A stretch of DNA of 60,680 bases, counting the filler, from Sphacelaria rigidula (taxonomy: Eukaryota), in assembly GCA_964200075.2 (NCBI GenBank). It is 8 parts of 8 records of this genome, joined end to end, with 100 filler letters (N's around TTAATTAATTAA, not from the genome) between each part and the next. Parts side by side here need not be neighbours in the genome. Positions count along the whole stretch, not along the records: positions 37,990 to 45,486 come from CAXNAA020014644.1; 7 more parts are not named here. One strand, written 5' to 3'. Below the pieces are notes generated by a model. The model had not been told where the DNA came from, ran no database searches, and saw only the letters and a program-made list of their open reading frames with translations. This document shows, piece after piece, positions 7,499 through 53,588 of the stretch (position 1 is its first letter; each line of letters begins with the position of its first letter). The translations under genes and the position numbers were made by a program.

Positions 7499-7598
7499 NN
7501 NNNNNNNNNNNNNNNNNNNNNNNNNNNNNNNNNNNNNNNNNNTTAATTAATTAANNNNNNNNNNNNNNNNNNNNNNNNNNNNNNNNNNNNNNNNNNNN
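7499..7598. other. Artificial contig spacer N44-TTAATTAATTAA-N44, recurring at 15097-15196, 22695-22794, 30293-30392, 37890-37989, 45487-45586 and 53084-53183
   Basis: Identical 100-bp spacers with stop codons in all six frames. The contigs between them are 7498 bp (x4) then 7497 bp (x4), i.e. size-sorted concatenation. Confidence 0.98.
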
Positions 7599-10500: not shown

Positions 10501-12391
10501 CAGTGCACTATGACTACATGTAGAGATGCACGTTGAATTGACGTCTCTGTCTGCTCAAACGCGGGCAAACTACGTGATCACATAAAATTCACATTCTTTA
10601 CATATATAGAATATCATAAGATTTCCATGCCGGCTGGTAATCCCGAAGCCAGGTTACACCACTAGCACAGCAATATATTGCACAAGATATTACATATCGC
10701 CATTCGGTAGCAGCACAGAACCACTCGTCGTACATCGCTCTTCTCCGCATGGCGGCCGTACCACTGCATACGCTTGGCGAAAGTACTACGTCGGTGACCG
10801 CCGGTCTCACCGAAGCTAGCGCACTCAATACGCAATATTCAGAGATTATCGCGACTCCGAAGTCATTATCCAGCCGGCAAATTTGCTCCCCTACGGCCAC
10901 AAGAACGACTGATCCACCAAACCCCTCGGTTTTGGGCTGCTCATGTCGAGGAGGACCCAAGGTGATACGACCGATGGTTCAATTCCGTATATTTGTTGAG
11001 GAACGGGAATAATTCGTTTTTCGCACAGCTGATGTGGTCATTTCCTCACGCTCGACCCCTGGGAGGGGGGGGGGGGGGGGGGGGGGGTGTTTTTCCACTG
11101 TGTTTTTCTGTTGTGTACACTCCGGGGGCGCGGGCGGGCGTCCGCGTAAANNNNNNNNNNTGGGGGGGCGAGGATGCTTTTTTTGTCCCGCGTGGTGGGG
11201 GGGCTGTTCCCGCGGCCCCGGCGGGGGGGGGGGGGGGGGGGGGGGGGTGCCGTGATTTCCCGATGTGGAACCTGTTGCACACGCTACGAGTAGCGCGCGT
11301 GCTGCTCGAAAATAACGCAATTCGCGCGTTTCATTTTTTTCAATGCAGAGGTTAGTTACCCTCTGGGTGTGAAGGCGACACTGCGAACCAACCGCAGCGT
11401 GACGCGTTCGGCGGTACTAACTGCTCACTGCAGAGCGGCAGGGTGCAGGGTGGCAAAGCACACCACAGGACGCGACATCCTTAGCCTACCCCTGTCCTGC
11501 ATCGATTTCGCGTCGTCCTATGCAGTTCGCCACATCATGAATGCCCCCGCTCGTATCGCGGCCAACGTGTACGCAGGATATCACGCTCCGCTACACGCTA
11601 TGTTGCTATGTCACATCTTGTAAAGTTCTCCGTGTTGCAGCTACAGTGTGCGTTTGCCTCAGGTGGCGCACGCAGCAGTGAAAGGCCGCCTGCGCCGCTG
11701 TAATGGCTGCCTGTATCTTGGGCGAAGCTGTATGGTAACACGGCCGCGGCTGGTGCGCCCACATATACTGAAAGGTGGAGACCAGCGTCCAGAATAGATG
11801 GGACGACAACACACCCAGCACACTGGTGTAGAAATCTTTTGTCCTCGGTGGGGTACATTTCCATGATGCAGGGTCTGGTCCATCTTGACTTATAATGTAA
11901 CGGGGGATTTGGTACGTTTCCACCTGTGCATGTATGTAATGTTACTCAGCGATATCGAGAAAAATCCCTAATATCTGGGCGAACTGCATGTGAGGCAATC
12001 GCCGAAATATTCACCTGCTCACTCTGCTCCAGTGAACTGTAAGTTGACATCGCTAGAAGGAAACTACTGTAATCACCTTGCCGGTTGCCATACTGTAAAG
12101 ACTGTCAGGGCGTAGGATCCGCTAGTATTGCTACTGTCTGTATGGGGGTGTTGCCCCCTTGTCAGGTACGGTTTGGAGCATGATACTAGATGAGGATCAA
12201 ATTTTCTTGTACATAGCGCCGAACGCTGGGGGCTCTCATTCAAGACTTCGATTTGGAGGATGCTACTAGGTAGGCAGGGGCAACTGCTATTGGTTCAGGC
12301 GCCCCTTGTAGCGCGATGTGTTTGGTGTCTATTTGACGAAGTTATCCCCAAGAGACGAAATCGATAGGGCTTTCAGAGTGAAAAAAATCTA

Positions 12392-13626: not shown

Positions 13627-16600
13627 AGATTTGCGGATGAATGTAGTTGGTTGTTCACCGTGAACCAGATTGTATGCAGCAGCGGTTTGTTTGGCCAGAA
13701 CGAGTGAAATTTAATGCCTGTACGGGGGTGTGATCTTGTGGCCTATACCCCGCATGGCCAGGCTACTACAAAAGTATCTTTTTTAGATCGGTATTATTCC
13801 TGGCACCAACAGGCACTTGAAAACCATTGCGGCTTGAGAATATTGATCCAAAACAAGAGTTGTTGTTGTAACACGTGGGGCAGTGCTCCGAGCTCATGAG
13901 ACTCAGAACAGGTGGAACGCGTTAGATCATAGCATATGCCATCTCTCATTTTGAAACAATGCGACGAGAATCAATTTACTCGTGAGACAGTCCCTGGCTG
14001 TTCACCCATGTGGAGTGACGAGCTACCCGTACATAGCTCGTGCAAAATCAATTATTTTCTAAAAGGTTTTCCAACGCAGGCGTGGTCATCTGTGCATTCT
14101 CAAATAAAGGACGCCCACGCACTCAATCACTCATCTCGTGACAGAAAATTGAGGTTGTAGCTATCTTCTCGACTCCTACTACGAATGCACACATAGCACC
14201 GGTGTAGCTCAAAACCTGTCACGCGCTGTAATTCATCATGCCACACGGCCTACAGAACCAAAGAACATTGCACGTCGCTTTTGCGTGGTCATCACCCATT
14301 CAGCCAGTTTCTCCTTCAAGACGTGAATTTCTCCTGTAGAGACAGCACAACGCCCTTAGCAAACATACCGGGCGATAAAATTGTGGGCTAAGGCACGTGG
14401 GAAGCACGTGCTAGGGTGTACAAACGAATTTCTGAATCCTGTTCCTCGCTGACGTCTCTACAGCGCTGCAGCGCACGCGGTGTATGGAGCTCGAAACCCG
14501 CATTGGGACTTTTCTGACCCGCAGCAAGCCTGAACGCGAAAATATTCCGAATTTTGCAACAAAGTTCCAATGCAGACCCGGTCCGGGGCGAGGATCACTG
14601 CTACGCAATTTCTTGCTGCTAACATTTCTATGACGGAAGCTTACGCGTGGAAGCAATTTTGCGCCAGAAAAGTGGATTCTGCCGCCGTATCTCCCACTCG
14701 TTACATCTGCATACTTCACTGTTCAAAACTTAGGACATTCGGTTCGAGAAATTGCGAAGTATCAAATACCTGTACTATGAGTAGTATGACAAAACAAGAT
14801 ACTGCTGTGGTGCTTTCCCATCTCTCTCGTTTTGTGCGCTTCCAACTACTTTGTCCCATGTCGGTTTGTTCTCGAAGGGGTGGGTGCCGTTGTCGGTGTC
14901 GTTACGTCCACTATTTCCTGTCCACCGATCGGTGTGTGTGACAAAAGAGTTGTGATCGTGAAGTGAACTATTGTGTGCGGTGAGCCGTTTAGTTTGATGA
15001 TGGGTAGGGTTGTTCTGTCATTCCTTATTTCAAGTGACACTTTCTACGATAGCCCCCCCCAGAAAAGTGCATGGTTCTGGGAGGCAAAATCTTCACNNNN
15101 NNNNNNNNNNNNNNNNNNNNNNNNNNNNNNNNNNNNNNNNTTAATTAATTAANNNNNNNNNNNNNNNNNNNNNNNNNNNNNNNNNNNNNNNNNNNNGGGA
15201 TGCGAGGTCAATGGTCTGATGACTATGGCAAGCATGATCATGAGTACACCCCCCCCCTCCAGTGACACACCTTGCAGTGCGGTATCGCGGGTTGGATTAG
15301 CGCTCCCGTACTGTGTCGACTGTCAGCTTATAAACTGGAACAAAGACTTTCCCCCCTACTCACGCCCTTAGACCCACTTTTATGGCAACGAATCTCGATT
15401 TGTACAAGTATGAGGATTTCAGCCCGTCCACAGACGATTTTCTGCCGTGGATTGATTTTTCGGACCCCAGTCCGTTGGGCGATGTTTTTCGCCCATCTAT
15501 GAGCAAAACAGAGGAATTCTTTGATTCTCTGGACATTGACTTTTGGTTTACAGCCTTTTTGCCCGAATCGGGACACTCCCGCATTTCGCTGATGAACCGA
15601 CCCAAACACCAACCTCTTGCCAAAGGCATCCCGTGAACACTCGGACGACGAGAGTGGAGTATGTGCCCTAGGCCTGTGTATATACGTTGGCAGAAGTAGT
15701 TGCGCGTCCCGAGTACACCAGCAAAAATCTTGGACTCGCAGTCCTCACAACTTCCATGTGATTTTCCATACACCACGGATTCCGTGTATTACCTCACATA
15801 TCACAGTGTGCTTTGGCTGAGTTGATGTAAACTCCCTCTCCATGCAGTAGCCAAACGTAGCCATAGAAATGGCACACATATACAGTAACGCGTTGACGTA
15901 CAAGAACATCACCAGAACACTTCCAGCGATGTACTCATTTTTTCTCATCTCTCGAGGAAGATCGGGGTGGAGCATGGGCAAACAAGCGATACTAGACCGC
16001 TGTTGAAGATGCCATTTGACCTCGGGTTGCAAATTCAGAAACATGAAACTTTCGTTCGTCGCTGTTGTGCACAGACTCAATGAAAATCGCCAAGGAATCG
16101 AGAAGGAGATAGGCGAAATTCTCTCCATGTGTACGTGTCGAATAGCGCAACAGGCGAAGGCGGGGCAGCCGACCAGCGTGATCGCAACAGTATGCAGCAG
16201 CATGCAACGTATGGGGGCTGTACATGCTAAGGTCTCACGTGCTTTTGCCCCTGTTCCAGACTCGGTAGGCATCGTCCCTCGTGTACAGTACATGCAACGT
16301 AGGATGCGTCTGTGCCGTACATACATCAAGCAGCAGTGACCGGTGTGCCGGACAGATAAAGATAGGAGGGAAAAGGGCTTACTCAAGACCGGCATCACTC
16401 TCCGAATGTCAGGATTTGTTGAAAATTGACGCACACTTGGGTCTCCAGACGCACCCCGGTGAAGCCCTCGCCTTGGTTGTCATGCATATGTTCCAGTTTT
16501 TTCCCAGCATGTACAGAAATTGTCACCAAACTAGACGCTCTAAGAAAATCCCTCGGACACGACACAGCAATACACGAAATAAATTCACGGCACGCTCAAG

Positions 16601-22694: not shown

Positions 22695-23846
22695 NNNNNN
22701 NNNNNNNNNNNNNNNNNNNNNNNNNNNNNNNNNNNNNNTTAATTAATTAANNNNNNNNNNNNNNNNNNNNNNNNNNNNNNNNNNNNNNNNNNNNGTTTTA
22801 GGCTTGAACCTCATCTCGGAGTTAAACCTCAATTCGCACAATTTGTTGTTTGATGATCGAACCGATATGTTTCGTTTCTTCATGCACAGTGGAAATCTCG
22901 GCGGGGCCATTTCTCTTTTCCCCTACCAGAGCATTGCTGTTATATCCCAGCTGGCGCGGGCCGAAGTGCCGTGGACAGTCGAAGATTTAGTTTCGGCGGG
23001 AGTCATGTCGTTTCGAACAACCACGCTACTACTATTGCTGTTGCTCTTGCCGATGCGGGCTGTTTTGCCACGCACGGTAGAACATTCGGCGGGACGATCC
23101 TTGCATGCGTTCCCCGGTCCAGATGGGTATCGAGGGCTGCGTTGAGAGCTAGCTCGATCATGCGGTTTTCCTACCTCACCCTGGATGCTTACTTGCCCTA
23201 CTGGATGCTCTTTACTCTGCGACTGTACAACCGCATCGGTCCATCCGTAACCCTAGCTACAACCGACGGCTCAAATGATTAATCTCAGCTGCCTGCCTGT
23301 GCACTTGACGTTTTAGTTTCACATAAAATATCGCTAAGAATTGGTGCGCAACTAGGGGAATGACCCCTACCCGATGCACTATTCCGGTGACCAGACTGAA
23401 ATGTCGTGCAAGATTTCCACGCTGAGGCTACACTTGCACCCGTCTGCATTAAAGTGCCCACAGACTGACTGACATTTTGATATGTGCAGGATTGTGATGT
23501 CTTTGCAACTTTCGAATTTCCTTCCCGCGGGTGATCAGTCCTTGCGTTGGATTTCAGTGCTTCATCGACACCATAATTCCTACCCAGTGGGAACGCACTT
23601 CCCTCGTTCCCCCAACTAGTAGTCTTCCCGTGCAAGGACGAGCCAGTTGGACTGTGCGGACTAAACACAGTGACGCCATTAGTATTTGCAATCTTTGCGG
23701 GAGGGTCAGATCCTCCACTACTTATAACGGGCTGAAGTGCTGTCGATGAGCTGGCCCAAGTTTCATCGTTGCACCTTCACGGTTTGTTTCTATTGCGATG
23801 GTCATCACACAGACGGTGTTGCCATTGTCGCCATTATACAGAAATT

Positions 23847-30292: not shown

Positions 30293-33200
30293 NNNNNNNN
30301 NNNNNNNNNNNNNNNNNNNNNNNNNNNNNNNNNNNNTTAATTAATTAANNNNNNNNNNNNNNNNNNNNNNNNNNNNNNNNNNNNNNNNNNNNAAACGATT
30401 CATTCACTAATTGACCGCTTTTCACTCTCAATCGTATCATCTACTCTCAATCTCACGAAAACACTGATTCATGTCGTGTCTTGACCCAATTTTTTGCAAG
30501 CTGGTTCCTGATCGAAGTCAATAAGTTTGTGTCTTCGGTAGGTCTGGCTTCACACAGCAGAATGCGTCGAGGAACGAACTGTATCTCGACCAAACACGGT
30601 ACTACAGTACAGGGCGTAGCTCACGTTGTACAACAGGGAATGGTCACTGGAAAAAATATTCATACTTTGAACGCGAGCATAGGTGATGACTTGAATCAGC
30701 ATCATTTTCACTCCAAATATTATTGCATGGCCCTCATGACCTCCCCTCGCGGTCAAGGGGTTGAGGGTCAATGCGAATGCAAAGGTTCCTCGCTGTACAA
30801 CCGCGCTTGCCAGTATTTGTGGAGCGCCCATGCACCGGCGCACTCGACCTAACGATAACTCTCTCCCTCTCAGCCGGGTGGAGGGAAGGTAATTGTGCAG
30901 GAATCGGTTCAGTAGGGGATGAGCAACACCCAGACGCGCGACACTTGGAAGTGGAAACGGGCGTGTTTTTGCGGCAGTTGCATTGTTTCAAATATGTCAC
31001 TGCTGCCGAACGCGTCGGTTCTTATTCAACTCTTATCGTACCTCACCCCCAAAACGTAGACCGTGCTCAGCAAACGAACAAATACATTTCCGTGTGTTTG
31101 TGGTTGCGCCGCGAGCAGTAAATGTATGGTGCAGGTGTAGCGCTGTGTGCACATCCGGTTCATGCATCTTGCCACACTAGTTGATCGCTACATAACCGCC
31201 ATGGCATTGCGTATCTTCCTGTTCACCGTTCTGATCGTTTTTTCAATACGTCAGGATGGGTTTCGACGTTCCAAGAGATTCCTGACGACGATTGAAGAAA
31301 CAATGGAAAATAAAACTGAGACATGCGGGTGTCCCAATCAAAGTTCGGGTAGGAAATTATTTCATCGTCCCTCAGTTTGAAAATAATCAAAATTCGGGTC
31401 AAGACAGAACCTCACGTTGTTGAAAGCTTTCTTTTCTCTCGCTCGCTGCTCTCCCCCGTGTCATGCCGAAGGGGTATCCATCCGGTAGATGTGGAGGTGC
31501 TCAATCAAGAGTGAGAAAATAGGCGGATGCGATGCGGCTCGGAAGAGACCACATCATTATTATAGCGACTTTTAGGCGTTACTACCTTGGGGTTTGGGGC
31601 TACGGATCTGAAATGAATCGAAAAAATCCCAGTACTGCCTCTGAGCCCTATGGCACCACGGGCACGGGCGCGTGCAGGCCGTTGGTAACTCAACCCCCGA
31701 AAATCATTACTTGTATTTCGGGCACTCGAAAATCTAACAAAAAAAACCCCTCTCGACAAACAATTGCATGTCGAGGGTAATAATCCTGATGCATTTTTGT
31801 CTTTGTACGGGACTCCTTCACTGCTTGCACGATTGAATATCCGAAACAGCACACGTTACACATTATGCCACCCCTGGGGATGTGTTTTCTGTAAGTTGAT
31901 CGGGCCTGAAACTCATCACCCGTCCGTGACTTTTGTTTCTTTAGGCGGGAGTAAACGAAGTTCCCCGAGGTGATCATCTTGGCGCACGCGATTTATCACC
32001 CGGTGTTGTTGTTTAGAGGGTGGTAAGAAGAGTGCAAATGTTATATTGCATCGTTTAACCTCCGGTACATGTGTTCCTTCCAGGAAAATGGATATACGAC
32101 GCCTGATAAACAATAGCACACTTCCCGCCCTTACCGAAACGATCCTTCTCGGATTTGAAGAAGCAACACGTACCGTACAACCATTTGTGTATATGCGGCA
32201 TTGCCCCCTCGGGTAATGAGTTTCCCTCCCCTGAACCTTGAAACCCGTACTACAGTAGATACATATATATATATTTGGTTTGATCCTGAACGCGCGCTGG
32301 GCACGCTAGCGAGCCTTCGGGATCATCAGCGCCGTCAAGATCTGGAAATGTGAGGATACACACCGAAAAATACGACACGCATGTTTCAACAATGTACATC
32401 TGGCGATGGGTGCGCGTAAACTGTATATTCGTAAGTACAGTGCTGTCACTGCGGTACGTCGTTTACCTCCCTTGCATATTCAGCGGCTTCTGGGTCTAGG
32501 CAGATCCGCGACCAGAAAACCATGACTGAAATGAGCTTCCTACCATTATGGATCGTAATATTCGGCTGTTTGGAAATCCCAAGTGCTTGAATCGGCGCCG
32601 GTTACGGTTAGTGCGTAAAAAGCCAACCATGTGTCATCCATAGGGTCTTGGTGGCAGGCCGGCGTATCCCGACTCGAAATAGCCGGTGACGTAACGGACC
32701 ACCAAGGGGGTCTCCTTCGGGGGTGGGGTGGTGCACAACGTACGATTGATATATAAACTGACGGTGAATGCGCAGGGTGATCAGCGATTGGCCCACGGGT
32801 GTTTGGACGCTCACGGGCGATCACGAATAGACTGTGCAAAGACATGAACGGTGATGGCGACAACCCACAAAATAGTTGCGTCGATCCTGTCCTATGCGTT
32901 GCGGTGGGTTATCCGCTTGTTCTGGTTGTAAATCAAAGACGCAGATTAAACTCGTTGGCGTCATCGGATATGTGTCGGTATTCATGGGCATCCACGAGTT
33001 TCCGCCGTCGTGCCCATGAATGCCCACGGCTGATCATGGACTACCCATACCGCCGTGGGTACCCACGAGCACCACAATCAACCACGAAGAACCATGGGTA
33101 TTCGTGGATTGGAATTCATGACATCCCATGGGTGCCCGTTGGGGAATCCGTAGGTACCCGTCGATTTTTTGGGTTGTTAATGAGTGCCCGGGGGTACTCA

Positions 33201-35025: not shown

Positions 35026-38000
35026 ATTGCATGGTATTGTGCACCGTACCAGTCTATTTGGGCTGTGTAGAACCCCTGAGTTCGATGGGTATCAAGCGTG
35101 ACGGCTTATATCTAGGGGGTGCTATGTCTTGGAGTGATTCCATTTGATTGTGTGGTTGAGGTTGACCAATATCGCTGTAACCTTACGTCATATTACACCC
35201 ACCGGTTCTTTGTGCTGTGTGCACACGCGTTGCATTATCTTGGTATGTGCATTTTTCACCGCGCTTTGTGTGATATTGTGTTCTCGTCATTACTGTAGCT
35301 GTCGTTATCGTGTCCGTTTTTGTCTCAAGCATCGAAACGCCCCTTGAGATACATATGTAGCCCCGGCACCGAACTGACCTTGTTGTTGAAAGCGAATCAA
35401 AATTCTACGTAGAAACTTACATGGTTGTTGCTGGGTATCTGCAGTACATGTGTTTATACATGTTGCCCGCCATCTCGTCCCCTCAATTCCATCCTTTTCG
35501 ACCCCAAAATGAAAATCTTTCACATTGCTTAAACGTTAGCCGAGAAGACCTCTGATCTTGCATGCTGTAGTCATATGACCGTTGACCTCGCATCCCTAAA
35601 AAGCCAGGACGGAGCACATCGTGTTTCCGCTGCACCAGACTCGCAACCAATCTCCAAGCGCACAGATATGGGGGCAGGCTTCATGTCTAGCAAACTTTCT
35701 TTTTTTTCACGTCAACCCCAACTCTCCGACTGGTGCGTACATCAACTCTGAGTTCAAGAGTTGCTCCGAGTCTTGCAGCGAATTCTCATTACATGAAAAA
35801 ACTTGAGCCTGAAGGTCCGACCACGTCTCGCAGCTCAATTACTTGGATTTGGAATATACCTGTATTTTGGGTTTAAACAAGAATGGAGTGCGGAGTTGCC
35901 ATTTTTTAAAGAGAATTGATACCCCTCGTGTAGCTTGTAAATACCGTTTACCCGGTTCAAGGCCGCTTATCATGCCCTGAAAAATAAATCTACGGGAAAA
36001 CTGCCTTCTTAGTCTCTCTTTGTCGTTTTCTCCTGAGAAGAGGCCTCTGTGGATTTTGACGCCTGGGGAATGACCAACTCTACGTTCGGAGACAGTTTCG
36101 AGATGCCTGCGACTTTTCTGATTGGCGAAGGAATTGATCTGACCAGGCTTGCAATACCTCAGACCAACGTTCCAAAGTCAGATAGACAACGATCATGTTG
36201 TTCCGTTTCCGCCCATTCGGTGTTCCCGAGTGACTAGCGCGCAAGAATTCCCAACCAGCTACAAGGTCAAACTTTGTGGACTAGAGAACGCAGAAGTGTG
36301 TCTGAATCCTCTCGGCAAGTAGAACAAGTCATCATGAGGTGGCAGAATTTGCCTAGCCCTCTTCGGCAAAAACCATCGCGGAAGGATCAAACAGGCCCTT
36401 CTCCCGAGATATGTCTTTCTTCCCATCATAGGAAGGGGGTTTCCTGGTAATGTGGCTCGCCGATAGTATAGAATTATCGACCTTTACCGTTGCTCAAGGT
36501 CCCCCATTTTACATTTATCCTGCAGACCTCCCCGGGGAGATGAATACCCCAGATGGGTATCCCACTGAGATGTATGGTCCATCATCTGGGATATCCGTAT
36601 TCTAGTGGGCTGTTTAAACGGGGTATGGATATCCATCTTAGATATCCGTTTGGGACACTCATCTAGGATATCTATTTGTGGTATATCCATTTGGGATTTT
36701 CGAGATCGATATTCATGTGAGACATCTTTCCGGGATATCCATTTCCACGTAAAGTATCCGTCTGGGATATCCATCTGGGATATCCCTCTGAGACATCGAT
36801 CTGGGACATCGATCTGGTATATCCACAGCCCCGTATGATATCTGTTCGCCAAGTTTTGCCGTGTGCGCCAAAGCAGCACTATTGAGTCGTCGCCGAGTGT
36901 GATAGGTCGAGCGCGTGGTACGTGCAGTTGATGATAAAACACGAATGAACACTCTGATTTGTAACGTCGCCTTGGCACCGGTTACTGACATGGCATCCCT
37001 CTCTGTTGGCTTCACCGAAGGGACGGTGTGCCGCCGAGAAAACATGTCGATGTCACCTCGTAGTTGCAATCAAACAAAGTAGCGAGGAGCACCCCGTGCC
37101 AATTTTACCTTTTGGCGATGTGCACGTGGACATTTGTTGTATCCACACTATCGATGCTACAGCTAAGAGGGTAATGCCCGGTGGAGGTTCCGGATGGGAA
37201 GCGATCTGCCGCATGGATGTCGCATTCGTTACTCCAAGGGATTCCACAATTCCTTAAACGAGGATTCCATATCGACGTGCCGAATGGACGCTCAAGTTAT
37301 ATTCGTTCCCGGAATACACATGTATGCAGGAAGCATTTCAGAGGTGAATATCCGCCTATCCGGAGGACTCCATCTGGCATATCCTACATGCAGATGAACA
37401 TCTCAAGAGGATTTGCTATCCCACGTGGACACCCCCGAATGACACCCCAGATGGATAGTACATCCCAGATGGACATCCGATTTGGATATTCCATATCCCG
37501 GAGAGACATCCCACGTCGACGTCCACGTGGACATTCCAAGTGCACGTCTTAGATGAATATCCCAAGGCGTCATGGACGCACCAGATGGTTCTGAATATCC
37601 CGGATGTACATCTCTCCAGTATATCCGCATCCCCGCGGTTCATCCTAGATGGGTATGGTATCCCAGATGGAGGTCGCACGGTAGTGCAGGGTTGCCCAAG
37701 TTCCGGTCTTTCTTGCGTGCGTAGACATTGTGATCCGGTTACAATTTTCATTCGAACATATTGTGACGGTATCAAGTAAAACGCCACAGTGTATCGGGTG
37801 TGACCCTCGGTGTGTGTGTTGTGTTTTTTTTTGTATGATTCATTGACCGCCGGAGTCTACACCTTTCGGTATATGTGGGCGCATCAGCCNNNNNNNNNNN
37901 NNNNNNNNNNNNNNNNNNNNNNNNNNNNNNNNNTTAATTAATTAANNNNNNNNNNNNNNNNNNNNNNNNNNNNNNNNNNNNNNNNNNNNCGACTTAGATG

Positions 38001-38420
38001 TACCGTACTCCCCCTCTCTACCTGTACCTCTCATTTTGGCTGTTCTGGGGGGGCGCCATGGGTGACTTGGCGTCCGAACCATTTCTCCCCGCTGCCCCCT
38101 GGTTATACACACATATATAACACAAGTATACCACACCCTTAGGGTATATCTATGTAATATGGGCAGATCTTTGGCCCACGGATTGTTCGCTTCTGGCACG
38201 TTTGACCCATCGTTTGACCCCCAAGCCAAGACTAACCGCCAACACACATCTCCGACACGTTGCATCACCCCACAGAGAGGAGCTGGTCTGCTTTTCAGAG
38301 TCGCTCTCCTCCGAGGTTCGAGATTTGCCGCGGAACAATTTTTTTGCAAAAATCTGTCCTTGCCGACCCCCGCCAGTTTGGGATGGGAAGATTACAAATC
38401 CTCGTGACATGACAACAATC

Positions 38421-38686
38421 TATAGAGTGATGCTGCGATAGGGTCAGCACTTTTACGGCCTGAGAGTAGAATTGTTAGGAACCCTCTATCTCATCCAAAA
38501 CACGACTTTCGAAATAGGTGAGAGTACGCCAGGGTTTTTCCTCCAATTTGCTAGGGATATCCCGAATGAATTTGCAAACGGGGATATCCTGACCCATGTT
38601 CTTGTGTAGTTCCTAATTTTAGGAACCCCTGAATCAGGCCGGTTTTGGCCCCAAAAGTGCAGACCCTGTCGCAGCATCACTCTATA
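38421..38686. mobile_element. MITE with ~40-bp TIRs, TA-flanked (Tc1/mariner-type)
   Basis: TATAGAGTGATGCTGCGATAGGGTCAGCACTTTT ... AAAAGTGCAGACCCTGTCGCAGCATCACTCTATA. Confidence 0.8.
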
Positions 38687-38717
38687 TGAAACCTCCGATT
38701 GACACATTCAATGATTT

Positions 38718-38997
38718 GACACCTTACAATGATTTGCTCCACTCATTCAGGTGGGTCCAGGACATTTCCCCCTTTCTTGGTGGCCGCAGTTTTGATTTTG
38801 GCCAAGGAACGTTTTGTCCAGGGAGGGTCAAGTCCAGAAAACATGGCGATTCTATGGCGAATTTCTCTGTATTTGAAGGTTTTCGACTGTTCTTGAACTA
38901 AAGTTCTTGGTTGGCGAAAAAAGAAACTACGGCCACCGGAGAACGAGGAAATGTCCTGGAACCCCCCAACGAGTAGAGCAAATCATTCCAACGTGTC
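38718..38997. mobile_element. MITE with ~75-bp imperfect TIRs
   Basis: GACACCTTACAATGATTTGCTCCACTC..TCCAGGACATTTCC..GGTGGCCGCAGTTT is mirrored by AAACTACGGCCACC..GGAAATGTCCTGGA..GAGTAGAGCAAATCATTCCAACGTGTC. Confidence 0.75.
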
Positions 38998-39075
38998 GGC
39001 GTCCGCCTAGCTCTCGCTTGTGGCACACGACGACGTGAAAACTCCAAAAGAGCACTTTTTCAGATTCCCACTCAC

Positions 39076-39218
39076 CTTCGTAAACTCCTCTGCAATCGCT
39101 TCCGCTCCGACGTTATCTTTTTTCGTGCAATCTTGTATGGAGCCGATGATCCCCATGAACATATAAAGTCTATCGTAATTGCTCCGTTCTGACAGCGTCT
39201 CTCCCACCTCGTTCAAGG
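39076..39218 (-). pseudogene. ParB/Srx-like gene, exon 2 (end of the ParB domain and start of a putative HTH)
   Basis: GCAG acceptor and GTGAGT donor. A phase-1 join to exon 1 gives ...MRTIGD-A-LNEVGETLSERSNYDRLYMFMGIIGSIQDCTKKDNVGAEAIAEEFTK. Confidence 0.7.
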
Positions 39219-39825
39219 CTGCGCCGTTGTGCCGACATAGATATGTGGAGAGGGAACGTTTTGACGTGGTTGACTAGGGATGATGACTCATGAAGTCGGT
39301 GTTTTGTGGGCTCCAAACTTGAGAACTGAGGAAAAGCTTCATTTTTAAATTGTAAATAATCAACAAAACTTCGAATGCCCAACTTGTCGTCTTGCCCTCA
39401 TGCTAGAAGGCGCGCCTCGTGAGGGAATACTGCTACAACGCCACAACAAGGACGGGAATAAGGCGCGTATCGCACGCCTGATTAAAAAACAGCTTGAACC
39501 GGGGCTTGAAAACAAAAAAGTAGTTAATAACAAAAATGGAGGTTGATTTTAACACAAACACGCACATACGCCAAATAACACCTGTTTGCAGGATCATTCA
39601 AACTCCATCCAACTCATTCTCAGCTACGACCGCAACCCTGCAGCATAGAGCACGAGTTGAGCACAGGGATAGATACCTGCAGGAGTTGGGTGTGCTTTGT
39701 TTATTTTTTGTTGGCAAAACCTTGCGCATCTTCTCTCATGGCAGGCATTAGGGACGAAACTGCGTGGTACGGTGAGCACCCGAGTTGCGTGCACGCTATT
39801 GGACAAAGCAGGCAATACAAAGCTG

Positions 39826-40136
39826 CAAGGGTAGGTCGAGTAGAGTTTACTCAATTGCGGGGTATTTTGCAAGACGAACTTGAAGTACTCAAATTAGGGT
39901 AAATTATTCAGAGCCGTACCCACAAGATAACTGGAGCGCGATCCCAACGGACTGGGGTCCGAAAAATCAATCCACGGGAGAAAACCGCCTGTAGACGGGC
40001 TGAAATCCTTTTATTTGTAAAAATCGGGGTTTGTTGCCGTAAAAGTCGGTCTAAAACCCTACCCCCAATCCGTGTACTGTAAGTACGACTTTCAAAATAC
40101 CCCGCAATCGAGTGTACTCTACTCGACCTACACTTG
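39826..40136. mobile_element. hAT-type MITE with ~75-bp TIRs and an 8-bp TSD, inside intron 1 of the ParB-like gene
   Basis: CAAGGGTAGGTCGAGTAGAGT..ATTGCGGGGTATTTTG / CAAAATACCCCGCAAT..ACTCTACTCGACCTACACTTG; flanks CAAAGCTG and CAAAGCTC. The same TIR start recurs at 53026-53046. Confidence 0.85.
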
Positions 40137-40356
40137 CAAAGCTCCACTGTCTTTTTGGGATCGAAAGCTTGAAAATCCATACGCACCCAACTGCATCAAA
40201 ACGAGAAATGTTTGCTCGGCGACCGCCCCAGCGTAGGGAGGTGCGGAGTATTTTTGGGGAGGGGCTGACCCCGTGCAGACTACTGCGAAATCAGAACAAA
40301 CACCTGCCGAGCACCAAACCACAAGGTGCGATTTCAGGTGTGAAAGTGCGACTCAC

Positions 40357-40774
40357 CGTCTCCGATGGTGCGCATTTCGTTGGCCGATACATCCCTGTAC
40401 ACATTGCATGGAATCCGCTTCTCCAGCCCGAAGATGCGCTGTCCTGCTTTGACTCGGTGGTTGCCGTCAAGAACCCGAAAAGAAGCGCCTGCCATGGCCT
40501 CAGCAGTGACCAAATCACCTGCCTCGCTGCTAAGTACGATGGCTGGTGGGTTGTGAGTAAGCCACCAATTCACGTTTTTAGACCTCATGGCGTCTTATAG
40601 TCCTCGCGGATTCAGTTCCCTGGACAGCGACGTTAAAGTCAGCTGGCTCAGAGGGATGTTGAAACGCCCACCGTGCTGTTTGTGCAACCAAGCCTCCGGC
40701 TTACTGTTTGCCCCTGCCGTATCGAGGGGGGAAGATGGAACGCCTTCATCGGCGACCCTGAGAGCCGCAGCCAT
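40357..40774 (-). pseudogene. ParB/sulfiredoxin-fold domain gene, exon 1 (one in-frame TAA at 40595-40597)
   Basis: ATG at 40774: MAAALRVAD...GRFNIPLSQLTLTSLSRELNPRGL*DAMRSKNVNWWLTHNPPAIVL...SFRVLDGNHRVKAGQRIFGLEKRIPCNVYRDVSANEMRTIGD, then GTGAGT. The DGxHR..A box and flanking ParB motifs are in the correct order. Confidence 0.78.
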
Positions 40775-41554
40775 TCCGCTGTACTACAGGTCGAGTATCA
40801 GGATCGCGCTAGGTGTGACTTACTGCCCGGATGGAATGGGTGTGATGTGTAATGGTGTGGGCGGTGTGCGGGGGCGGTAGCGTTAGGTGATGCCCCAGCG
40901 TTTTTCTTTTTTTTTACATTGTGCGGAGGCATCAGCACGTACGGTGCACATCCTGGGAAATCTTCAACCTTATCCCTCAGGGGCGACGTGCAGACATGTC
41001 ACCGCACAAGCAGGTGCTTCCACGTTCACATGCCCGTTGTTTTGCAAATCAGAAGGTTGCAGGGCTCATATGTGCCGTGATGTTGACACGACAAGACGGA
41101 TAAGACAAGGTGTCGTGACTGCATCGTGCGTACTGTTACGTTCGGTCCCCGTCATGAGGAATATTGCAGAGGAACCCCGGTTATGCCATTCGCCTAATAC
41201 TATCCGTATATACGGCATGCAGTTGCAAAAACGTTTGCCCCGCAGAATGTTGACCGCAGAAGCACAGATTCGAACCCGAAATGTCGTTTTTCATCTGTGA
41301 TGAGTTTTCTGGCGGTTAAATGCCCCTACGAGGGTACAAATGACCAAGGGGGTTTCGATCGATGCTGTATATATGCCCGTATGCCTGTGGACAGTGCTTC
41401 AAAGTGCCACCTGAAAAACTGTGGTCATCACGGAGTATTGGTTCGCGGGGGTGCGCTTGTGCACTCGACACCGACGTCCACCCCTAGAACTCAGTATAAC
41501 CTGAGCCACTCTTTCCTGCATCCGCTCCATAAACAGCAGTCCTCACCACCCACC

Positions 41555-42033
41555 ATGCCCTTGACCGAGGCCGGCCGCCTTCTGTTCTCGCGCATTTTGC
41601 AGAACATTCCACCCCTTGAGGCGGTCAACAACGTTTCCAACAGAAAAACCGAAGCTGCCACCGCCCCATGTACAACCCCTCTACCTGGCCCCAAGTGCAT
41701 AAAGCGGCCAACCGACTTCTGCACGATGGTGGCTACGTCTTTTCGCTGCTGCACAACAGTGGACAGTGTCGGGAAATTTGTCAAAGGGACGCATGATGCG
41801 CAGCGGCTGGAGCTGGAACAGCAGGACTTCGCTAGCTTGACCACGTCCTCAGCGAGATTCGCCTGGGTTCAACGGCAAGTGCCATACGAGAAGCTCGGGC
41901 CGCGCAAGGGCTCTATGATTGCTGCGGGGAAGTACGTTTGTAATCGTTTTTTCTCGCAGGCATATCGGGTGTCGAGTAATCTACTGGAGAACGCCAAGCA
42001 CAACCCAAAGGCACCCCGGAGACGGAGTATCTC
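41555..42033 (+). CDS. First exon of a DUF7869/Sola-like transposase-type gene (downstream part appears decayed)
   Basis: CACCATG start and GTGAGT donor at 42034. The Cys pair plus VCNRFFSQAYRVS resembles the VCxxFFxxxxG(V/I)S motif N-terminal to DUF7869/Sola-like transposases; this is recognition from memory, not a search. Confidence 0.5.
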
Positions 42034-43064
42034 GTGAGTACTGCTATGTGGCATGCAATCGAGCACGTGTTTAGATAGGCAACGCCCTGAAGTGTGTCCC
42101 GCCCTGTATGTCTCCGAGCCGTCATGTATTTTCGCGGCTAGCCGTGTACATTAAAACCTGTGCCGGAGGTAAGGTGCGTTTCGAGCATGTGCCACCTTCG
42201 TGTACGTTGCTGGCGACTCCCCCCTCGACGGTTCCTTTCGCATATTTGTTTCGCTAACATCCCTCATAATTCGGGACCCCTTTTCACACGTGCTCTGTTG
42301 CTCCAATGTTGTGCCGGTGGGTGGGGCTCATGGGCCCCGCTTGTCTTCGTCTTGCGTGGAAGCACAGTGTCCTCGCCTGCTCCCAAATGCACACCTCAGA
42401 CCTCCCGCGGAAAGTGTGACTGTACATGTAGCGACTGACCCCTCGACTGCAACTTGAACCTGAGCTAGCGTATTGAGTATGTCAACGGAGATAGGCATTA
42501 GCTCCGTCAGCCGGTTTAAAAAAGAAACTGAGATCATTTCTAGTTTTTCATAAGCTCTCCCCCCTTGTTTTATGCCTCACTTTAACCTTTTTTCAGCGGA
42601 ATATGTGTACTTTATGCGCCCCCTTGGCGTCCTTGTTGTGGCGTTGTGGCAGTATCCCCTCACAAGGCGCGCCTTCTAGCATGAGGGGAAGACGACAATT
42701 TGGGTATTCACAGTTTGAAAACATGTTCTTGAATGAAAAAAAGGGCTTTCCTCTGATCATCGAGCTTGAATTTGAACGGTATATATGTCATACCCTTTGT
42801 GTCCGCACTACGTACACTCATGATATATGACGCAGCAGTGGGTCATTGCAGCCTCTGGACACAGGGTACTGCAGCCTTTGGCCTCTCGCCATCTAGCTTC
42901 AAGCTACAAGCTATAGCCCCCCCCCCCCCCCCATCATCAACCAGTCGACATGTGAAATCACATTGTCACGAGATTGTGTTCTGCTGCTTTCACTGTTTAC
43001 CCCTCCAAAGCGCTGTAGGTTGTACGCTATACGCTGTACGGTGAACAATGTACAATGAACCCCA

Positions 43065-43533
43065 GTGATGTGATGAGGAGGGTGAAGACACCTTGAGAAG
43101 GGTGTAATGGTGTTCACCACGATTGATTCCAGGTTCAGACCTCTGTGTACGTTGTTCGTTGACTCAGCTCAGCAGCGCGGCTGACCACAGTCGCTCTCAC
43201 GTATTTCACACAAGGAGACAACAGACAGATAAAGACAAGAATAGCACCGTTTTTCACGCACTTGATTGCATACAAGCACACCACACAAATCTGCGGGAGC
43301 TCCAACTGTGACGTGATGAGGAGGGTGAAGGCACCTTGAGAAGGGTGTAATGGTGTTCACCACGAGTGATTCCAGGTTCAGACCTCTGTGTACGTTGTTT
43401 GTTTACTCAGCTCAGCAGCGCGGCTGACCACAGTCGCTCTCGTGTATTTCACACAAGAAGACAACAGACAGATACAGAAAAGAATAGCACCGTTTTTCAC
43501 GCACTTGACTGCATCCAAGCACACCACACAAAT
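43065..43533 (+). repeat. Tandem duplication with a 243-bp period, two near-identical copies
   Basis: GTGATGAGGAGGGTGAAG.CACCTTGAGAAGGGTGTAATGG...CAAGCACACCACACAAATC at ~43065-43291 and ~43308-43533; duplicated ORFs start at 43123 and 43366. Confidence 0.93.
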
Positions 43534-44599
43534 CGAAACAAGCCGAAGCCTTCATCAATAAAACACACCAGACAAAACAGCAGCCCGACTACTGCTCTTA
43601 TCTCTGAGACTCACTTTTTCGACGGTTCTGTAGGTACCCCAATCGGAAAACTGTTGAGTTGCAGCCGAAACCGGAAAAGAGAAGAGGGAGCGAGTGACGC
43701 TCAGGGGAACTGCTTACAGGTCAAACGTGTTTCGCCGCCCCATAATTCATAGACTGAGGTCATACCCTAAAATCCAAGAGCCGAGCTCTTCAATACTTGC
43801 CATGGTTGGGTCACTACATTTTTGTTTCGAATTCAAATACATGCTCTCCGTAGACGTCAACCCAAGAGGCAGCCAATTTCCCGCTATTTTGAATATGAAA
43901 ATGTCCATCATCCAATGTCACCTTTGCCCAAGATCATGGCTATGTCCTGCAGTCACAGCATATCACACGAGCCTCCAATGGATAAAGTAATCGCAGGAGA
44001 CCCACACATTCCATTCCCCCACACCACAGAAATATATATATATATATATATATATAAAAGCAAAAGAAAATACTACAATAAAAGAAAATGTGAGACACGT
44101 CAAGGGGGGAGTGCTGTGACGGGGACTTAGAGGGCGACATGACATATTGAAAAAAATCCGAAGGGTGTGAATCCAAAAACCCAAGAATCGACAACGGTCG
44201 AAAAAATAGCGCCGAACGCTACGAAATATCCGGGAATCCAGGACAAATCCGCCACAAAAAGCTGAAGCAGCGAAAAACAAGCCGGTAGTCCATCCCCTAC
44301 AAAACCTTGATATAATGCTTGACTGCTATCATGCGAAGGGGAAGTTATGTCTCAATACACGTCCAGTTTCGTTGTGAGAGTTTTTTCAAGCAGCCCGCCA
44401 AGGCGTCTCACAGTACAGAGGAAGCACAAACGGTCGTACACTTCTTTCATCAGTAGAACCCAACGGTGTTGAATGCTCAAACGGAAAAAAAATCGCTGAG
44501 CGGAAGACACCGGAAACAAAAACTAACATGCAGCCGTGAAGCAACATGATGCACCAACGTGACGATGAAGGGCGGCCCATCGAATTGAAAAGGTGCGTG

Positions 44600-45486
44600 T
44601 ATCGTCCCACAAAGCGTCAACGAATAACACACAACCGTAGGAGATAAATCCAAGGCGGGTAATCCGATGCGTTCGTGGTAGACCACGACAAGTATACAGA
44701 AAGAGGTGGCCAATGCGGTCCGCTCTTAGATACTTGCCCGTTCAGACGAGAAAATCGAGAGGGTGTGCATACAAACGGGAGGATAAACTCCCGCCGAGCA
44801 CATCAACGCGATATTTCGCCGTCAATAACCCTGCAACAAAAACGAACCACCATACTGATTTCCGAAGCGGCGGACCGGATGTACGACGTCGGGACTGCGA
44901 AAAACAAAACAACTTTTGGCGGACTGGTGTTGGGCGGAATATAGCCGAGCAACGGAACTGAACATAATCCAAGAGAAAAGGAATATCCCCGAACATGGAA
45001 CAACTGATACAGCGAGAAATCATAAAGAATCTGCGACGGTACTCAAGAAGAGGGCTTGTTGGACATGCAACACATAACCCGGTCATCGAAAGCCAACGGG
45101 AGTCCAACGATATTAAGCTGCCAAAAGCAAAACAAAACACACACACACACACACAAAACAAAGAAGAGACTAGAGGGGAAACGAATAACAGGGTACGCCG
45201 AAAGAACCAGTCCGTTGGAGAGGTTGATGGCGTTCGTGGGTGGGCAATCGCACACACCGGGTATTTGCCCCGGAAAGGGGTTGGTGCGGGACGTGCTGAA
45301 GAATACCAACGGTGTGCGTTGGCCGCCCCCGAATACAAATAAAGAAAAAAAACAAATACAAAAAACAAGGAAAACAGGTGACCATGCAAGGTAGGAAGAA
45401 GGAGAAACAGGACAGAGCAAAAAAAAAAAAACTAAGAAAAACAAGGAAAAGAGAACACAAAAGGAGCAGACCGGAAACGGCAAAAA
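44600..45486 (-). mobile_element. Probable non-LTR retrotransposon (RTE-like) 3' UTR fragment
   Basis: T-rich low-complexity blocks on the minus strand alternate with non-coding segments resembling brown-algal LINE 3' UTRs; similar style at 6300-6720 and 49580-49920. Recognition only. Confidence 0.4.
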
Positions 45487-46306
45487 NNNNNNNNNNNNNN
45501 NNNNNNNNNNNNNNNNNNNNNNNNNNNNNNTTAATTAATTAANNNNNNNNNNNNNNNNNNNNNNNNNNNNNNNNNNNNNNNNNNNNTGATTATCTTGCAT
45601 TTGGGTGACAGCCTCCAATGAGTTGCTTTGTTATCTGGTATCGCCACTTCCAGAGACAGCAACGACTTATACACTGCCTCATGTGTGCATCATCGGTGGG
45701 TGGGGGGGGGGGGCAAGGCAAGCAAGCTACAGTAGGCAGGTGTGTATGCATGCATTGAATATGTGTGCAAGCATGGAGACCAACAGGCCAAAAGATGAGG
45801 CGAGAAGTTTGGCAAAACGTGGAAGTGCATCGGACCGGAACAGCACCACTCGTCGTGGAATGTCGCAAGCAACGGAGTTACGCTGGAGTGAGTACCCTTC
45901 ACTAATTGCGCTGTACGTGAACGTGCGCGGGGTTTTCCCGCGCTGTCACTTAGCTACGAACAGGCTTTTAATGTCCAGCGAAATGGTCATTATCCATCAT
46001 CCAAGGACGAGCAAAAAATAAAAAAGGATTAACAAAAAATAAAAAACGGAAGGCAAAAGACAACAGAACGGACGAACGAACGTACGAACATGGAGAAAGA
46101 AAGAAAGAAAAAAGACTAGAAAAGACAAGAAAAGACAAGAAAATATCCAATCAATCACGCGATCAACCACACCCTTCGAGAGCGCCCCAGAAAAAAACGC
46201 CAGAAAGTCTCAACACTTACTCCTTCATGCAAAACATGACGCATATCCAACAAACAGGATACTCCTACCAAACCGTGTCAAACGACCGAGGAAAACAAAC
46301 CCTCAC

Positions 46307-53006: not shown

Positions 53007-53588
53007 CCCAACCGTCAGAAGGTTTCAAGGGTAGGTCGAGTAGAGTATGTTCTTTTGAGTACTCGAGTAAAATACTCAAGTATNNNNNNNNNNNNNNNNN
53101 NNNNNNNNNNNNNNNNNNNNNNNNNNNTTAATTAATTAANNNNNNNNNNNNNNNNNNNNNNNNNNNNNNNNNNNNNNNNNNNNGAGGGGGTGCGGAAAAA
53201 AACTAACAGACGAAGCGTTGCCGGGGGGGGGGGGGGGTGCATCTCTAGGAAGAAAATACGTGGAAACGGCACCTTTTTTGCCCAATTAGAATGAAATTCC
53301 AAAGGGTACAAAGCAAGGGTGTGCTGGAAGATATAATCACACCCCGCACAACCCGTGGATTACTGGTTGAAAGATAAGCTGACGACCGCGTGTGCTGCTG
53401 TGCACTTGATGCTGTTGCATCGATGGCTACGTGATACAAACTTACACTGTGAGTCCACGTCGCGCGCATCAGCAAAGGGTCTTGCAAAATGAATATTTAC
53501 CTGTAATATATAACATTTTTTTTCCCAGTGAACCGAATGGTGATAACCTGGACCGTGCGGATCGGTCGACTGGATCAACCATACGCAG

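Follow-up and report, generated by a model that had tools for sequence, protein, structure and literature searches.

In a 60,680-nucleotide stretch of DNA from the brown alga Sphacelaria rigidula (assembly GCA_964200075.2, hereafter the window), two spliced genes diverge head to head: a minus-strand gene that we call ParB-like and a plus-strand gene whose family is multicopy in other brown algae. We tentatively interpret this locus as a decayed internal fragment of a large ParB-carrying DNA transposon, akin to the giant Ectocarpus element Sola1-1_Ec32 or to the red-algal elements that carry PAG3. We favour this interpretation among several and hold it with reserve. It is carried by the tight divergent packing of the two genes, by a putative ParB/Srx-type N-terminal domain in the minus-strand gene and by the distribution of the plus-strand family. 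The copy itself is dead, because the ParB-like gene contains a premature stop, the later exons of both genes go undetected in the surrounding piece of DNA, and intron 1 of the ParB-like gene holds nested repeats.

Layout of the gene pair

The two start codons, at 40774 on the minus strand and at 41555 on the plus strand, point away from each other and are 780 bp apart. Each first exon runs up to a GTGAGT splice donor, located at 40356-40351 on the minus strand and at 42034-42039 on the plus strand. An earlier note on this DNA had described the divergent spliced genes and their common donor sequence, and both are read directly in the sequence. The window is a composite of eight pieces of about 7.5 kb with spacers of the form N44-TTAATTAATTAA-N44 between them, and features are therefore not to be linked across spacers. 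The gene pair lies entirely within a single 7.5-kb piece, 37990-45486. Its placement on one contig, as claimed earlier, is thus correct for this piece but cannot be extended to the whole stretch, which consists of eight joined pieces.

Judged by homology, both open reading frames (ORFs) are real genes and not chance frames, because 49 proteins match the plus exon at E ≤ 1e-3 and, for the minus gene, P0003 (an "unnamed protein product" of 301 aa from Sphacelaria rigidula) is found at E 1.5e-20. The features of the locus are the following:

40774..40357, minus strand: exon 1 of the ParB-like gene, with 139 complete codons and one further base, from translation and homology to P0003
39219..40356, minus strand: intron 1 of the ParB-like gene, GT..AG, 1138 nt, phase 1, with acceptor AG at 39220-39219
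39218..39076, minus strand: exon 2 of the ParB-like gene, reading LNEVGETLSERSNYDRLYMFMGIIGSIQDC...EEFTK, with a GTGAGT donor after it
40775..41554, no strand: region between the two ATGs, 780 bp
41555..42033, plus strand: exon 1 of the plus gene (P0001), 160 codons, followed by the GTGAGT donor at 42034-42039
39366-39469, no strand: left arm of an inverted repeat, 104 nt, within intron 1 of the ParB-like gene
42613-42716, no strand: right arm of the inverted repeat, 104 nt, 580 bp downstream of plus exon 1

The 780 bp between the start codons contain no notable repeat array and may act as a shared bidirectional promoter.

Structure and decay of the ParB-like gene

P0003 is the only relative of the ParB-like gene found in a collection of 5.8 billion proteins (43% identity at 81% query coverage), and a search limited to proteins of 77-247 aa gave none. 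In a tblastn comparison, residues 22-138 of P0003 map to 40696-40355 and residues 136-189 to 39225-39064. The bounds of intron 1 and exon 2 follow from combining these matches with the splice sites read in the sequence. Exon 2 is 59% identical to residues 137-186 of P0003, and the junction GD|A-LNEVGETLS of the window gene parallels GDALNDVGETLS (GDALNDV) in P0003. Exon 2 ends at a second GTGAGT. Therefore, position 39076 marks the end of an exon and not the end of the gene, and the ParB-like gene ran further. Beyond exon 2 the piece extends for another 1.07 kb, and aa 186-301 of P0003 (116 residues, the C-terminal end) have no match there; the downstream exons either were lost or fall beyond the end of the piece.

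Exon 1 is interrupted by an in-frame TAA at 40597-40595. This is the stop that had been reported before; it is codon 60 of the gene and aligns with a glutamate in P0003. Of the joint decay suggested earlier, only that of the ParB-like gene is shown, by its nonsense codon; plus exon 1 is open with its conserved start and has kept 18 of 21 conserved columns. P0003 differs from the window at residues 101-105, which read DGNHE in place of DGNHR, so that the arginine of the motif is lost. Going by its sequence, the P0003 copy may also be degenerate, or nucleotide binding may not be conserved.

A putative ParB/Srx-type domain in the minus-strand gene

The N-terminal domain of ParB/Srx proteins is defined by an order of motifs that runs from an N-terminal strand with NPR through a PxxV strand and an (I/L)DGxHR motif with its helix to a second strand. 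The translation of exon 1 (motifs F.I.LSQL, RELNPRG, NPPAIV, RVLDGNHRVKAG and IPCNVY) carries LDGNHR and has this order, namely FNIPLSQL..RELNPRG, NPPAIV, RVLDGNHRVKAG and IPCNVY. The best tblastn match among 50,697 phage records is the "ParB-like partition protein" of Shewanella phage 1/44 (S144_71), with an E of 0.2. In pairwise BLASTP, a single comparison, the window sequence RVLDGNHRVKAG aligns to KIIDGHHRYHAG of the Shewanella phage protein at E 5e-8, and DGNHR is paired with DGHHR. Directly after the aligned region the phage protein has an HTH_ParB match (1.6e-8), and it also gives a sub-threshold match to ParB_N (8e-4).

Profile-profile comparison with hhalign used the two-sequence brown-algal alignment of the window exon and P0003 as query. 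The template consisted of 10 phage ParB-like N-domains taken from 271 matching records, comprising the first two matches and eight more across the identity range. Probabilities of 86.3% and 89.4% over 76-77 columns were obtained, to be read with the caveat that the template family was chosen since one of its members was the best match of the window. The aligned span reaches the upstream F.I.LSQI / RELNPRG, outside the query that found the phage protein. All 22 controls (one reversed, 20 column-shuffled and one unrelated family) stayed at a probability of 1.1% or below. We conclude that the minus gene encodes a predicted, highly divergent ParB/Srx-type N-terminal domain; the ParB/Srx-like label of the earlier note is upheld by the profile-profile probabilities of 86-89% against phage ParB-like domains.

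The algal gene shares with phage ParB-like partition proteins the motif order I/F.I.L..I, NPR, PP.xV, DGxHR. Unlike these proteins, in which a helix-turn-helix (HTH) follows the N-domain, the algal proteins give no HTH_ParB match, and the algal gene is a eukaryotic one with introns. Further searches returned little. In the PDB, searched by sequence, the ParB-like profile has no match and the 80-aa domain finds only a peptidase at chance level, E 1.6. The plasmid tblastn with the ParB-like domain gave nothing below E 3, and neither a scan of metagenome contigs with the ParB-like alignment nor a scan of viral contigs (IMG/VR) with P0003 yielded relatives. The atlas look-alikes of the ParB-like domain, which we treat as leads only, include clusters with ParB_N (11% of members) and with DUF6551.

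The plus-strand gene and its family

The translation of the plus exon contains VCNRFF....VSS, so the motif of the type VCxxFF....(V/I)S named in the earlier note is indeed present. A HMMER search over 1.84 billion cluster representatives returned 49 proteins at E ≤ 1e-3, 25 of them at E ≤ 1e-10, and the best match has an E of 1.6e-35 with 49% identity. We kept 46 of the 49. The three that were dropped (P0012, P0029 and P0044, one of them a fibronectin-repeat phage tail protein) are multi-piece matches to the Thr/Pro-rich stretch only. Common to the 46 is the pattern CC..L.C..F / R..W..VP / GSM.AG..VCN.FF..AFGVS..I...K.NP.

In the window, the relatives map by tblastn to 41501-42034 only. The exon boundary is conserved, as most of the 46 relatives end where the window exon ends, which suggests that they are single-exon predictions made on eukaryotic sequence. 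P0046 (314 aa) and P0070 continue into a second exon with the pattern ..VV.FL......MP....LY... The exon-2 sequence of P0046 has no detectable counterpart in the window, and within the piece none appears even with E relaxed to 50; the short exon-2 tail of P0070 was not run against the window. The second plus exon with stops that had been proposed at about 42399-42555 is thus left without homology support.

Names could be assigned to four of the 26 clusters looked up, and all four are from brown algae: P0043 and P0046 from Ectocarpus sp. 12 AP-2014, P0051 and P0027 from Pylaiella littoralis. The two Ectocarpus proteins are 87% identical to each other. The P0027 cluster comprises three Pylaiella littoralis proteins with at least 90% identity on three different contigs, and the P0010 cluster has 12 members, of which one is found on 15 contigs. 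The family is unnamed, and it is multicopy in Pylaiella and Ectocarpus. These data support the view that the plus exon family is repeated and patchily distributed in eukaryotes, as expected for a gene of a mobile element. The assignment of the plus gene to a mobile element, made earlier, fits this multicopy and patchy eukaryotic family, but a match to a transposase domain is lacking.

At Cys71, a column with Cys in 40 of 43 relatives, the plus exon has Ser, which is the only notable loss among its conserved columns. An AlphaFold2 (AF2) model of P0001 from a 47-row alignment is helical with a predicted local distance difference test score (pLDDT) of 87.5, and above 90 over about 100 residues (~50-150). 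Fold searches with this model found no clear counterpart: Foldseek against the PDB gave a best E of 2.6, a wide VIA-align search a best Z of 3.8, which is below the noise guide, and BFVD no match at E ≤ 0.001 (best E 1.8). The N-terminal domain of the 46 clusters is probably DNA-binding. No long relatives (645-2000 aa) were found among 8000 scored candidates, which is weak evidence, and scans of metagenome contigs and of viral contigs (IMG/VR) with the plus-gene alignment gave no relatives either. Atlas look-alikes of the plus exon are unnamed clusters labelled Oomycota or Arthropoda; recognition was below the guide value and they serve as leads only.

Repeats around the gene pair

The two 104-nt arms of the inverted repeat are 87% complementary and bracket both first exons. 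The core of each arm is an imperfect palindrome, CCCTCA-N19-TGAGGG, around GGCGCGCC. The window has this 31-nt core at these two sites only, against a chance expectation of none. The 104-nt repeat could have arisen when a short repeat inserted twice, or it could be bound by a protein. Within intron 1 of the ParB-like gene, a hairpin at 39824-40138 has arms of 76 nt with 83% complementarity and resembles a miniature inverted-repeat transposable element (MITE). Its centre, 39943-40054, recurs at 15368-15479 with 88% identity. Since this second copy is located in another piece, the hairpin is a dispersed MITE-like repeat.

Two more MITE-like palindromic structures are located at 38421-38686 and 38718-38997, past ParB exon 2 in the downstream direction. 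One has 40-nt arms that are 90% complementary, and the other is a near-palindrome of 280 nt.

Comparison with known ParB-carrying elements

Sola1-1_Ec32 is a giant Sola-1 DNA transposon of Ectocarpus of 21.5 kb with 1989 copies, of which 2 are intact (Genome Biol 2025;26:320, PMC12477816). Its ends read AACCG..CGGTT, with a 282-bp imperfect terminal repeat and a 4-bp duplication, and on the strand opposite the transposase it carries a gene for a 1104-aa protein that combines a ParB-like part with a DNA methyltransferase (PMC12477816). Pseudogenized transposase genes and nested insertions are frequent in the giant Ectocarpus elements (PMC12477816). The statement in the earlier note that such a system had not been described in brown algae is therefore outdated, as Sola1-1_Ec32 was published in September 2025 (PMC12477816). 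The accompanying proposal of a ParB-carrying eukaryotic DNA transposon gains in that a divergent layout of transposase and ParB-like gene exists in brown algae (PMC12477816), but neither a catalytic domain nor termini are seen at the present locus. The two also differ in their accessory gene, which is a 1104-aa fusion in Sola1-1_Ec32, whereas two ParB exons are present here and the 301-aa homologue P0003 has no methyltransferase. Unlike in Sola1-1_Ec32, a search of the piece with Pfam and the window ORFs found no Sola catalytic domain.

PAG3 combines a ParB-like domain with a 2-oxoglutarate (2OG) oxygenase and moves between red-algal Plavaka, Mutator and Zisupton elements (10.1101/2025.02.11.637652). 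Its ParB-like domain was seen by HHpred only, with an E of 0.29 (10.1101/2025.02.11.637652). The window gene is similar in having an N-terminal ParB-like domain that is visible to profile methods only. As for its own features, PAG3 resides on large DNA transposons and was proposed to bind the DNA of the element (10.1101/2025.02.11.637652). In PAG3 the 2OG oxygenase fusion is found beside tandem inverted-repeat arrays, neither of which we found in the window, and the hosts are red algae. Phage homologues of ParB can activate a DNA thymine dioxygenase (PNAS 2026, PMC13229309), which provides an experimental basis for ParB modules that serve DNA modification. For the algal gene, we identified no partner enzyme. 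The concept of a ParB-carrying algal transposon is hence not new, with precedents from 2025.

Nature of the locus

If our preferred interpretation is correct, the locus would derive from a large cut-and-paste DNA transposon in which a transposon gene and a ParB-like accessory gene, both belonging to one mobile unit, were transcribed divergently from the shared region of about 780 bp. The 7.5-kb piece would then be internal to an element of 21.5 kb. The plus exon would be the first exon of the transposon gene, possibly the N-terminus of a transposase, and would encode a Cys-containing helical N-terminal domain that is probably DNA-binding. In intact elements, the ParB-like protein would bind the DNA of its own element and recruit or activate a DNA-modifying activity, so that its presumable role would be one in DNA binding or DNA modification. 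The modifying activity might be a DNA methyltransferase, as in Ectocarpus Sola1-1, or a 2OG oxygenase, as in red-algal PAG3; neither a methyltransferase nor an oxygenase domain was found in the window ORFs by Pfam or in P0003.

A number of results weigh against this interpretation. The likeness to Sola1-1_Ec32, namely a brown-algal host, a ParB-like gene opposite a transposon gene and a degraded state, is one of description. The ParB-like gene has one relative versus 46 clusters for the plus gene, and the two genes are therefore not obviously co-distributed. In this relative, P0003, the 301-aa model contains no methyltransferase, and DGNHE replaces DGNHR. The assignment of the ParB-like domain itself is met by negative results: neither exon 1 nor P0003 is matched by Pfam, NCBIfam or PADLOC, with E limits as loose as 1-10, PHROG 1033 ("ParB-like partition protein") is reached at an E of only 0.074, and the AF2 model of P0003 from a three-row alignment is unusable, with a mean pLDDT of 38.7. 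On the side of the transposase, no Pfam match, DUF7869 included, was obtained for P0001, P0046 and 15 further members of the family. Only exon 1 of the plus gene is contained in the piece, and a DUF7869 domain would lie downstream of the available part; the literature searched contains no mention of DUF7869. The DUF7869/Sola-like label that the earlier note gave to the plus gene is thus to be read as a suggestion. The 120 window ORFs of at least 112 aa likewise have no Pfam match and contain no transposase catalytic domain.

The termini add to these points. The inverted repeat 39366-39469 / 42613-42716 was considered as the pair of element ends and rejected. The conserved exon 2 of the ParB-like gene lies outside, and therefore the repeat cannot bound the unit. 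It splits the ParB-like gene, and no clear target-site duplication is seen on reading. Terminal inverted repeats or a target-site duplication were not identified elsewhere; termini of the Sola1-1_Ec32 type were not searched for.

The main rival is chance adjacency, in which the 5' fragment of a mobile element has come to lie beside a lineage-specific brown-algal ParB-like pseudogene and no ParB-carrying transposon exists here. We regard this as unlikely, though several results speak for it. P0003 is the single ParB-like relative detected and has its intron position in common with the window gene, as orthologous host genes would. The plus family is far more widespread, and its look-alikes from Oomycota and Arthropoda show no sign of a ParB partner. 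The missing element ends and the presence of the plus gene as one exon only also speak for it. Yet the start-to-start packing over 780 bp matches the opposite-strand layout of Ectocarpus Sola1-1 (PMC12477816), and the plus exon retains its conserved start and 5' end, which fits a promoter-proximal arrangement better than a random truncated insertion. Furthermore, annotation usually masks repeats, so that little can be concluded about a low copy number from the one ParB-like relative that is annotated.

An ordinary or domesticated pair of host genes, specific to brown algae, that shares a bidirectional promoter, is undergoing pseudogenization and does not at present belong to a mobile element would be in line with the spliceosomal introns and canonical GTGAGT donors in both genes, and with the fact that neither gene matches a known transposase domain. 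In Pylaiella and Ectocarpus sp. 12, the plus family has near-identical paralogues that sit on separate contigs, which argues against a host gene pair, as do the nonsense codon in the ParB-like gene and the absence of the later exons of both genes from the piece. We thus consider this explanation improbable.

Slightly less credit still is given to the idea that the pair represents an undescribed lineage of brown-algal elements. Here, a free-standing ParB-like protein of roughly 300 aa, not fused to any enzyme, would be the obligate divergent partner of a transposase with the unnamed Cys-containing N-domain, and the 104-nt repeats with their CCCTCA-N19-TGAGGG / GGCGCGCC cores would be parS-like binding sites. 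If true, a eukaryotic transposon would here employ a ParB clamp or loader directly for its transposition or the maintenance of its copies, rather than for DNA modification.

That the locus descends from an integrated giant virus of the phaeovirus type, or from another viral element with a ParB-like gene, is very improbable: ParB-like domains are mainly prokaryotic or viral, the nearest non-algal relatives are phage ParB-like proteins and brown algae commonly carry integrated phaeovirus DNA, but both genes have spliceosomal introns, the IMG/VR scans with P0003 and the plus-gene alignment were empty, and the BFVD search of the plus-exon model ended at a best E of 1.8.

Giant algal transposons with ParB-like accessory genes came to light only very recently (2025), and we know of no test of the role of these genes. 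If our preferred interpretation of a ParB-carrying transposon fragment holds, the locus would be a second example from brown algae, and its homologue in the distant order Sphacelariales would date the association before Ectocarpus. Such an example would also provide sequences with which to ask if the ParB-like module binds the DNA of its own element. The plus exon marks a widespread, confidently folding and unnamed domain that is useful in the annotation of transposon genes. Given that this copy is dead and incomplete, its value is that of a pointer and not of a system for study.

Other features of the window

A tandem duplication with a 243-bp unit (1.9 copies, 94-95% identity) occupies 43065-43534 downstream of the plus exon, where A-rich DNA of low complexity is found as well. 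The spacers between the eight pieces are located at the following positions:

7499-7598: spacer
15097-15196: spacer
22695-22794: spacer
30293-30392: spacer
37890-37989: spacer
45487-45586: spacer
53084-53183: spacer

A separate N10 gap is present at 11151-11160. The piece next to that of the gene pair has, at 36627-36829 and 37430-37671, tandem repeats on both strands with a degenerate unit of about 13 bp, of the type GGGATATCCATCT.

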